From the IMG/VR virus record IMGVR_UViG_648276671_000016: a stretch of 18,138 nucleotides of DNA. One strand, given 5' to 3'. The number at the start of each line of letters is the position of its first letter. Positions within the stretch are counted from its first letter, which is position 1. A model generated the notes under the pieces. That model worked only from the letters and a program-made list of their open reading frames with translations. It made no database searches and was not told the DNA's origin. Of this stretch, positions 16,267 to 17,230 are shown piece after piece. The position numbers and the translations under genes were made by a program. This DNA is from a virus (Duplodnaviria > Heunggongvirae > Uroviricota > Caudoviricetes).

Positions 16267-16422
16267 ATAATTGCAACGACATTTATAATACCGTTGCTTT
16301 ATTGTAACGGTGTTCCCTGCTGTAGCCTTATTTTTTGTGGGTTTTTTCATGCTGAAGTTTGGCAAAGTGAACTTTGTATGCATATACTTCATCCAAATAT
16401 TCAGTAATATCAGGTGGATGAT

Positions 16423-17157
16423 ATGGCAATTACATGCTCAGTTATATTGGTTCTGGAGTCGTTTGATGTGTCTTTGGGAAAGAATAGAGTGTTTCTGGAA
16501 AAAGGCTCATCTGTACTTGTTGACTATGGAACCAGAGATTTTTTTCTGGCATATCCGGAAAGAGTTATAGTAGCGGATTTTGGTGGTGAATTTATTAGCC
16601 GCTATTTGAAAGCTAATAATCTAAGGGATTTTTCTGATTGTAGGGAATATCCATCTTATATAAAAACAAATTTTGCTGATTTCAGTCTAATTAAGGGATT
16701 AATTAGTTGGGCTAATCACTGCACTGAATACATTGAAGTTTTAGATGAGTCTATTGCATTTACATGCCTATCCGCATTTGCGTCGGAAAAACAATTTACA
16801 ATATTCCTGTTTGGATGTCTGAAAAGTGTAGGGGCTAAAGTTAAAGCGATTATTCATACGGATATGTCTGCACCCTGGCGTCTTAAAGATATATCTTCAA
16901 GATTATATCTCAGCGAAAGTTTGCTAAAGAGGAAATTGAGAGAAGAAGGTCTGTCATTCAGTAAAATTATACTTGATGAGAGGATGCGGATGGCTGAATA
17001 TTTACTCAGCACTCGTTGCTATTCTATTCGCAAAGTAGCCGAGGTCTGTGGTTATGTAAGTGTCTCGTACTTTGTTCATGTATTTAGACGTTATTTTGGT
17101 ATTTCTCCAAGCCAGTATTCACAGAAGAACTCAGAAAGTGAGATTATCACTCACTAG
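16423..17157 (+). CDS. AraC/XylS-family transcriptional regulator, AppY/GadX-like
   Basis: C-terminal AraC HTH region (WRLKDISSRLYLSESLLKRKLREEGLSFSKIILDERMRMAEYLL...SYFVHVFRRYFGISPSQY). N-terminus MAITCSVILVLESFD parallels AppY MDYVCSVVFICQSFD. ATG at 16423 has RBS AGGTGG; the ORF track starts at an upstream GTG. Strongly AT-rich gene. Confidence 0.85.
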   Translation: MAITCSVILVLESFDVSLGKNRVFLEKGSSVLVDYGTRDFFLAYPERVIVADFGGEFISRYLKANNLRDFSDCREYPSYIKTNFADFSLIKGLISWANHCTEYIEVLDESIAFTCLSAFASEKQFTIFLFGCLKSVGAKVKAIIHTDMSAPWRLKDISSRLYLSESLLKRKLREEGLSFSKIILDERMRMAEYLLSTRCYSIRKVAEVCGYVSVSYFVHVFRRYFGISPSQYSQKNSESEIITH

Positions 17158-17207
17158 AGAGGTACGGTATGCTGCTGATAGCTTTTACAGACCGTAGTAA
17201 TACACCC

Positions 17208-17230
17208 AGAATGGACGCCAGCATTATTGC
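17208..17230 (+). terminator. Intrinsic terminator after the AraC-family gene
   Basis: CCAGCA-TTAT-TGCTGG (17208-17223) followed by TTTTTTT. Confidence 0.5.

Follow-up and report, generated by a model that had tools for sequence, protein, structure and literature searches.

What is the role of a transcription factor gene that lies between the antiterminator gene Q and the holin gene of a lambdoid prophage, when might it be expressed there, and which genes might its product control? These questions are raised by an 18,138-nucleotide stretch of tailed-phage DNA (Caudoviricetes; IMG/VR record IMGVR_UViG_648276671_000016), the whole of which is referred to below as the window and which comprises the left and central portions of a lambdoid E. 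coli prophage. A first-pass annotation of this DNA, made from the letters alone, had singled out positions 16267-17230 as an AT-rich regulator gene of the AraC/XylS type bracketed by terminators, a range that includes the gene together with the DNA upstream of it and the greater part of the downstream terminator. The computational analysis described here favours the view, to which we assign a probability of roughly 0.6, that the regulator is a divergent allele of PatE, carried as a self-contained late-operon moron by an icd prophage, expressed in the lysogen and activating genes of the gadE and hdeAB type.

Identity of the regulator

The open reading frame (ORF) listed for the regulator spans 16414-17157, the start in practice being the ATG at 16423, which lies 5 nt past the Shine-Dalgarno (SD) sequence AGGTGG and is the same start as that of PatE homologues. 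The frame is intact in all copies of the regulator examined, and its product (EGI41678.1 of E. coli TA280) belongs to the AraC/XylS transcription factors with two helix-turn-helix (HTH) motifs, in keeping with the family to which it had first been assigned. Judged against the Pfam gathering cut-offs, both AraC HTH models are exceeded, with HTH_AraC (PF00165) scoring 60.9 bits (cut-off 26.6; E=1.1e-16) and HTH_18 (PF12833) scoring 55.9 bits (cut-off 33.6; E=5.3e-15), and the PROSITE AraC signature PS00041 is matched at residues 187-229. Disruption of the HTH was looked for on the alignment, where the HTH proved to be intact and under purifying selection. Additionally, K169 of the regulator aligns with K170 of AppY, a predicted DNA contact whose K170E mutant lost activation of control fusions (PMC10057817). 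The protein is assigned by PHROGs to phrog_1450, a phage family without annotated function.

The gene had also been described as markedly AT-rich, and its composition agrees with this. The coding sequence has a GC content of 36.6%, with 30% at third codon positions (GC3) versus 53% for Q, while the interval between the Q stop codon and the holin gene has a GC content of 36.5% versus 46% for the window, the values for Q and the holin gene being 48-49%. This interval is the lowest-GC 1.1-kb stretch within the window. The part of the window from 15400 to 18138 is 100% identical to GL884341.1 (assembly GCA_000176655.2).

A review places patE (z0321) in OI-8/CP-933H of E. coli O157:H7 EDL933 (PMC10877973). 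The closest relative of the window regulator is ECs_0287 of E. coli O157 Sakai (247 aa), with 84.4% identity over all 244 aa and no gaps. ECs_0287 is the sole AraC regulator of the Sakai prophage Sp1, which is located at thrW and which we take to be the Sakai counterpart of CP-933H/OI-8; for both of these reasons we infer, from the review and from synteny, that ECs_0287 is PatE, and it is treated as such throughout.

The relationship to PatE was examined further in a neighbour-joining tree based on identity distances, with bootstrap support. In this tree the window protein and a 96% allele from another locus (L006) are sister to the PatE sequences (100% bootstrap), and are joined next by a clade of E. 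coli proteins of 243-244 aa (100%) and then by PsrA (92%). AppY, GadW, YdeO and GadX fall outside the PatE/PsrA group, where the branching is poorly resolved, and AppY pairs weakly with GadW (60%) and not with the window protein. Among the K-12 proteins, YdeO is 34% identical to the regulator, GadW 32% and AppY about 30-31%, the value for the C-terminal part of GadX being 37%. The earlier placement of the regulator beside AppY, GadX and YdeO was right at the level of the family but too coarse, in that no specific grouping with AppY was recovered and the nearest characterised relative, and sister in the tree, is PatE, at 84%. Similarly, the parallel that had been drawn with the N-terminus of AppY is a real one (MAITCSVILV versus MDYVCSVVFI), and GadW and YdeO parallel it equally, an N-terminal xxCSV[IV] motif being common to the regulator, YdeO, GadW, AppY and GadX.

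Two other assignments were considered and rejected. Orthology to AppY is ruled out by the identity of ~30%, the lack of specific grouping and a different genomic position, and the clusters of 243-aa E. coli proteins (~51-53% identity), hereafter the sister clade or clades, were rejected as PsrA, which forms a separate lineage at 37.6%. By the NCBIfam equivalog models the regulator is likewise not an equivalog of YdeO or GadX, scoring 144.3 bits versus 348 with the former model and 105.8 bits versus 500 with the latter.

Between the regulator and PatE, synonymous divergence (dS) is 0.49 and the ratio of non-synonymous to synonymous divergence (dN/dS) is 0.16, with similar values in both domains, which points to an old split between the two alleles under purifying selection. 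The recognition helix of the first HTH, SESLLKRKL, is the same in both proteins.

An AlphaFold (AF2) model of the regulator, built from 15 sequences, has a mean predicted local distance difference test (pLDDT) score of 80.8 and shows a beta-rich domain at the N-terminus, behind which lies a helical domain with the double HTH. The best match among solved structures is GadX (3MKL; E=3.6e-23), on which the modelled DNA-binding domain superposes with a root-mean-square deviation of 1.1 A and a template modelling (TM) score of 0.89. Over the full length, the fold is best matched by CsvR, Rns and ToxT (E ~1e-11, 17-20% identity), for which the TM score is only ~0.42 because the domain orientation differs. 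Regulators of the Rns/CsvR/ToxT type respond to fatty acids, for which their N-terminal beta-sandwich domain has a pocket, the bound ligand contacting both domains.

The cargo slot between Q and the holin gene

The first-pass annotation had placed the gene in the moron slot between Q and the holin gene, and the flanking genes substantiate this, with a PF06323 Q upstream and a PF04971 holin downstream (Table 1). Homology to the backbone of phage Santai ends at 15995, inside Q, and returns at 17305, just before the holin gene. The 3' ~190 nt of Q diverge from the Santai allele, with the closest matches among complete E. coli genomes being just 66-69% identical, and no sequence relative of the Q protein was found among solved structures.

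The content of the slot differs between loci. In strain A3, where the same backbone is integrated next to icd, it comprises QuuD, a porin and essD; in Santai, Q is followed by four tRNA genes and essD, and in N3 it is followed directly by the holin gene. The 96% allele of the window regulator occupies the slot of L006, a locus with different early genes. Sister-clade AraC genes are present at two loci with other types of Q, namely L021 (PF06530-type), in which lipocalin and desulfurase genes precede an AraC gene adjoining the holin gene, and L024 (PF03589-type), in which the AraC gene comes directly after Q and the contig stops 172 nt past it, within the apparent holin start. In Sakai Sp4, psrA is separated from Q by two other genes and followed by a tRNA cluster, with a rearranged lysis cassette. 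The presence of an AraC regulator in this slot of the late region is an established pattern and not a new one; a search of the literature found no earlier description of AraC morons between Q and the holin gene. By its presence or absence between conserved genes, its predicted promoter and terminator and its deviant GC content, the window gene can be regarded as a moron.

One further candidate for this arrangement was rejected. What looks like an AraC gene after quuD in chicken isolates (H32) is not a Q-to-holin cassette but a fusion mediated by IS1. In several such isolates (L009, E. coli Z1323CEC0010, 4568-7890), IS1 joins a DLP12-like quuD-porin remnant directly to the patE remnant at bio, an arrangement that imitates an AraC gene linked to Q.

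Transcription signals around the regulator

The regulator had been credited with an upstream region of its own, and a conserved predicted promoter, TTGGCA-N18-TATACT, was indeed found there. It is the best promoter match of the region and is situated ~30 nt ahead of the start codon. When compared with the patE locus of phage mEp332, identity is 62-64% across the leader and tR' (16174-16262), 77% across the spacer (16263-16347) and 88.5% across the promoter block (16348-16400), a 42-nt stretch of which has a single base difference from the patE loci. The leader value is close to that expected of unconstrained sites at dS 0.49. Since the promoter block is conserved in this way, and since the -35, -10 and SD can still be recognised ahead of the genes of the sister clades, the products of which are ~51-53% identical, there is good comparative evidence for a dedicated promoter.

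A downstream terminator had also been noted, and was recovered as a 7-bp stem (17217-17234) followed by T7. The predicted energy is -12.3 kcal/mol for a 51-nt stretch and -11.2 kcal/mol for the hairpin alone (centroid). An analogous terminator is present behind the sister-clade gene of L021, and the segment 17217-17241 had no match among complete E. coli genomes.

Upstream of the gene, the element first described as a tR'-like terminator has a 10-bp stem (16235-16257) followed by T5 and comes after a pR'-like promoter. The 3' end of Q and the DNA downstream of it were aligned for the window, N3, A34, Santai and L006. Both the -35 (TTGCAA, 16151-16156) and the -10 (TATATT, 16174-16179) of the candidate pR' are kept in the diverged N3, A34 and Santai loci; in N3 the -10 sits past the Q stop codon, in non-coding DNA, and coding constraint therefore does not account for its conservation. 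The motif TGATATT is invariant in all five aligned Q-family loci and the longer CTGATATT is found in four of the five, with the first C replaced by T in A34 and with variable flanks. In lambdoid Q systems, -10-like elements of this kind serve in pausing and Q loading, and such a role is proposed for CTGATATT. The stem of the terminator is retained in L006 by means of a G-U pair, while N3 and Santai have terminators at a similar distance from pR' which are non-homologous to that of the window and to each other. Given the conserved pR', the -10-like element and a terminator at a similar distance, the first terminator is best assigned to the phage late switch, as its tR'.

The predicted transcript from pR' to tR' would extend from 16186 to 16262 (~77 nt), with a 5' part that is conserved across the Q family, and the leader RNA has a predicted fold of two small hairpins in addition to the terminator. 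In Stx phages, the short RNAs made between pR' and tR' can serve as regulatory small RNAs (StxS), and the ~77-nt transcript is, by analogy, a candidate for a regulatory RNA of the same kind. A search of the window with Rfam returned nothing at gathering thresholds, two sub-threshold chance hits falling on the tR' hairpin, and no tRNA genes were found in the window.

Two repeats were also observed in this region. A perfect 10-nt inverted repeat, comprising CCTGATATTA (16189-16198) and TAATATCAGG (16405-16414), spans from the pR' leader to the SD region. Masking of the SD by this repeat, solely in RNA produced by Q read-through, was considered and set aside, the match being probably coincidental and each arm being conserved alone in lineages without the other arm; a rough estimate of the probability of a chance 10-nt match in 281 AT-rich bases is ~0.04-0.1, which is not rare. 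Additionally, an imperfect palindrome formed by GCAACGACATT and AATACCGTTGC is located at 16273-16297, between tR' and the regulator promoter, and the equivalent DNA of the patE loci contains spaced GTAACGG and GTTACGG repeats. The window palindrome may serve as an operator, either in autoregulation or for a different regulator.

Distribution and the origin of patE

The window allele is rare. No match of more than 85% was found in 5,426 complete E. coli genomes, and the allele is present in ~80 contigs of a wider collection, versus >1000 for the exact Sakai PatE alone and thousands for PatE. The exact regulator protein occurs in 52 contig blocks, with the same arrangement in every place shown. 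Among species-representative genomes, an exact 39-mer scan gave no hit, and a protein-guided scan gave just two irrelevant Bacteroidales hits. DNA with 85% identity is present in 655 of the 5,426 complete genomes, spanning positions 16263-17160 only, and the window flanks beyond these positions are found in none of them.

A sensitive alignment extended the homology with patE loci to the left as far as 16174, at the Q stop codon. In the part so added (16174-16262), 53/89 positions match without gaps (~62%), which none of 2000 shuffles reached. The patE loci have a decayed version of the CTGATATT element in this part, and their tR' stem is broken and its T-tract lost. To the right, the homology ends within a few bases of the regulator stop codon, and a partial IS3-family element starts 5 nt past the patE stop in Sakai.

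The PatE loci examined (MEI005 at bio; Sakai Sp1; mEp332, PhiR70_1 and ev099) are situated after a tail-fibre assembly gene and before the attachment end, in the b region, a position similar to that of appY in DLP12. The window regulator differs from PatE in this respect, lying between Q/tR' and the holin gene. Upstream of the pR'/tR' relic, the island in the b region includes a stretch of 338 bp that shares 97% identity with chromosomal DNA, namely the 3' part of serU and the sequence flanking it. The composite of serU fragment, relic of the pR' -10, leader and tR', patE and IS3-family fragment was located in mEp332 (L017, 3515-3852 and 3914-4000) and in Sakai (L005, 13860-14850). Of the 5,426 complete genomes of E. 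coli, 525 have at least 80% of the b-region composite. A tblastn search for a remnant of Q ahead of b-region patE found none.

The other branches of the clade are all located behind Q, and PatE alone is found in the b region, accompanied by a dead piece of pR'/tR'. The simplest reading is therefore that the Q-to-holin position is ancestral and that b-region patE would be a relocated copy. A fuller version of this history is offered tentatively, as one that we hold to be possible at rather less than even odds: the window would keep the original home of patE behind a PF06323-type Q, the copy in enterohaemorrhagic E. coli would have been relocated via a degraded serU-associated element and an IS3-family insertion, and the window allele would perhaps have drifted to a partly different regulon because of substitutions in its second recognition helix.

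Proposed function and alternative explanations

In the order of the elements described above, Q comes first, then pR' and the conserved element of its initial transcribed region, tR', the promoter belonging to the regulator, the regulator itself, the second terminator and the holin gene. With this layout, a short constitutive transcript from pR' would be stopped at tR' in the lysogen, and transcription of the regulator would start at its own promoter, probably controlled by H-NS and by stationary phase, as with other AT-rich regulators of prophages. Extension of the regulator transcript into the lethal holin gene would be prevented by the second terminator. Once the prophage is induced, RNA polymerase modified by Q would pass both terminators, such that the regulator would join the late transcript. 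The regulator protein most likely binds AT-rich promoter DNA via its two HTH motifs, activating gadE and the hdeAB-type acid-resistance genes.

The proposed targets are those of the characterised relatives. The first-pass annotation had suggested that the gene could rewire acid-resistance or virulence regulons of the host, which is a reasonable proposal, such effects having been published for PatE, PsrA/PsrB and AppY (PMC10877973, PMC10057817). PatE activates gadB, gadC, gadE and hdeAB and raises acid resistance, PsrB binds the hdeA and gadE promoters, and binding to the hdeA promoter is placed between -132 and -45 in the literature on PatE and PsrB (PMC10877973). PsrA and PsrB also repress type III secretion through GadE (PMC10877973, PMC10057817), and AppY directly activates gadE (PMC10057817). 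Given the 84% identity and the identical first recognition helix, the same core targets as those of PatE are the best guess for the window regulator.

Several points weigh against a lysogen-expressed regulator with the targets of PatE. Both pR' and the regulator promoter are predictions, made from consensus matches and backed by conservation, and the equation of ECs_0287 with PatE rests on the review and on synteny, the source annotations never saying PatE. Moreover, 38 residues differ between the regulator and PatE, among them V218/H219 (T/Y in PatE) within the second recognition helix and V212 (A in PatE) just ahead of it, so the target set could differ. These substitutions in and beside the helix are also consistent with an alternative in which a functional PatE-clade regulator has its main targets outside the GAD/hdeAB group, either at other host loci or in the cargo of its own prophage, for example the adhesin gene (Table 1), in the manner in which Rns, CsvR, ToxT and PerA control adhesins. 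The full-length model and the sequence find their best matches in CsvR, Rns and ToxT, which regulate adhesins and virulence; the adhesin-esterase cargo is present as well in all the places shown with the exact allele, and L024 pairs this cargo with a sister-clade AraC gene. However, A3 has the adhesin and N3 the adjoining esterase, neither of them with an AraC gene after Q, while L006 has the 96% allele and no adhesin within 8 kb upstream of it; since regulator and adhesin assort independently of each other, a functional link between them is unlikely. That every characterised member of the wider clade (PatE, PsrA/B, AppY, GadW, GadX and YdeO) converges on the acid fitness island or on gadE (PMC10877973, PMC10057817) also argues against main targets elsewhere, and this alternative is considered unlikely.

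It is less probable still that the gene is a silent passenger, H-NS-silenced or decaying in a permissive slot and without a role in the lysogen. Its very AT-rich DNA is typical of DNA subject to xenogeneic silencing, and the rarity of the allele would fit with such a fate. Conversely, the ORF has stayed intact in every copy examined, the dN/dS of 0.16 holds across a deep divergence, conservation of the promoter block well exceeds that of the adjoining non-coding DNA, and the design of gene, promoter and SD is retained in the sister clades. The regulator lies within the late transcription unit, with the holin gene directly downstream, which could feasibly indicate that it belongs to the late or lysis programme of the phage, being made only by Q read-through and acting on phage genes, for instance in lysis timing; two sister clades are also found directly upstream of the holin gene, and PsrA is downstream of Q. 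Closely related phages nevertheless function without a regulator in the slot (Santai, A3 and N3), and the gene has its own conserved predicted promoter, with terminators on both sides. The viable phages mEp332, PhiR70_1 and ev099, moreover, have patE in the b region, outside the region of the late switch, and a role in the late programme appears very improbable indeed. A divergent PatE allele that is expressed in the lysogen and acts on the acid-resistance genes is thus the explanation preferred here.

Organisation of the prophage

The integrase gene is followed by genes for a YqaJ-type exonuclease, a RecT-family recombinase, an S24/HTH repressor, a YdaT-domain protein, O and P, and then by the adhesin/esterase cargo, the nin region (NinB, RusA), Q, the regulator, a P21-type holin and a DUF1327 protein. 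The adhesin-esterase block (9081-13629), which lies between P and the nin region, has a GC content of 43-45% and recurs on the icd-integrated backbone in many E. coli, with adhesins of 1157-1303 aa. The holin reads MKSMDK from 17336; an in-frame ATG at 17306 would give a protein of 81 aa, and most related loci are called at 71 aa. A 90-aa ORF on the minus strand (17866-18138), convergent to the lysis genes and overlapping the end of the DUF1327 gene, falls in phrog_2411, a family of unknown function (E=7e-54), and was called at every related locus. The final 299 bp of the window (17840-18138) are duplicated directly downstream in the source contig.

Table 1. Features of the window, with positions counted from its first nucleotide
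Feature	Position	Strand	Evidence or remark
Integrase	1-1143	-	
Inverse-autotransporter adhesin, intimin/invasin-type, 1157 aa, five Big_1/Invasin_D3 repeats	9081-12554		
BD-FAE/alpha-beta hydrolase esterase, convergent	12586-13629		
Antiterminator Q, 234 aa, left border of slot	15478-16182	+	PF06323, E=3.5e-88; phrog_304 'anti-termination protein Q-like', E=9e-102
Candidate pR', TTGCAA-17 nt-TATATT, overlapping the last Q codons	16151-16179	+	Promoter scan (9/12) and conservation
Homology to patE loci (O157 Sakai Sp1; phages mEp332, PhiR70_1, ev099)	16174-17160	+	83% over 987 nt
CTGATATT, -10-like element, candidate sigma-dependent pause/Q-loading site	16190-16197	+	Q-family alignment
tR'-type intrinsic terminator, 10-bp stem (7 GC pairs), 3-nt loop, T5	16235-16262	+	-18.1 kcal/mol, z=-3.6
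Predicted sigma-70-type promoter of the regulator, TTGGCA-18 nt-TATACT	16359-16388	+	10/12 matches and conservation
AraC/XylS regulator, PatE clade, 244 aa	16423-17157	+	SD AGGTGG at 16412-16417
Second intrinsic terminator, 7-bp stem, T7, between regulator and holin gene	17217-17241	+	z=-2.2
P21-type class II holin, MKSM dual-start motif, right border of slot	17336-17551	+	PF04971, E=6.7e-34; phrog_9876 and phrog_20 'holin'

Comparison with known systems

AppY, PatE and PsrA/B are the clearest known cases of phages wiring into the acid-resistance and virulence circuitry of their hosts. To these the locus adds a rare and deeply diverged PatE allele (dS ~0.5) with a cleanly readable regulatory layout, and it suggests how patE itself may plausibly have originated. 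Together with PatE, the window allele makes a natural pair for asking which residues set the regulon, and the locus is a simple system for the expression of cargo in the lysogen without leak into the lysis genes. It reveals no new mechanism, the point made on the origin of patE being a small evolutionary one.

The regulator shares with PatE its full-length similarity, two-domain architecture, promoter block and SD; PatE is 3 residues longer and differs by the 38 substitutions. PsrA and PsrB (z1789/z2104; Sakai ecs1087 in Sp4, which is psrA; PMC13502914) are likewise prophage AraC regulators downstream of Q in the late-region cargo slot, and have in common with the window protein the N-terminal xxCSVI motif and membership of the clade (92% bootstrap), although PsrA is just 37.6% identical to it. 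AppY of DLP12 in K-12 is also a prophage-borne AraC activator of the same broad group, with the N-terminal motif and the contact lysine, but appY is found at the tail-fibre end of DLP12 and not behind Q. GadX, GadW and YdeO belong to the same subfamily (26-37% identity to the regulator) and are encoded by chromosomal genes, whereas the window regulator is phage cargo. Finally, the slot between pR'/tR' and the holin gene is shared with other lambdoid late morons, namely stx, the nmpC porin and tRNA clusters; unlike these, the cargo of the window is a transcription factor with its own predicted promoter and terminator.

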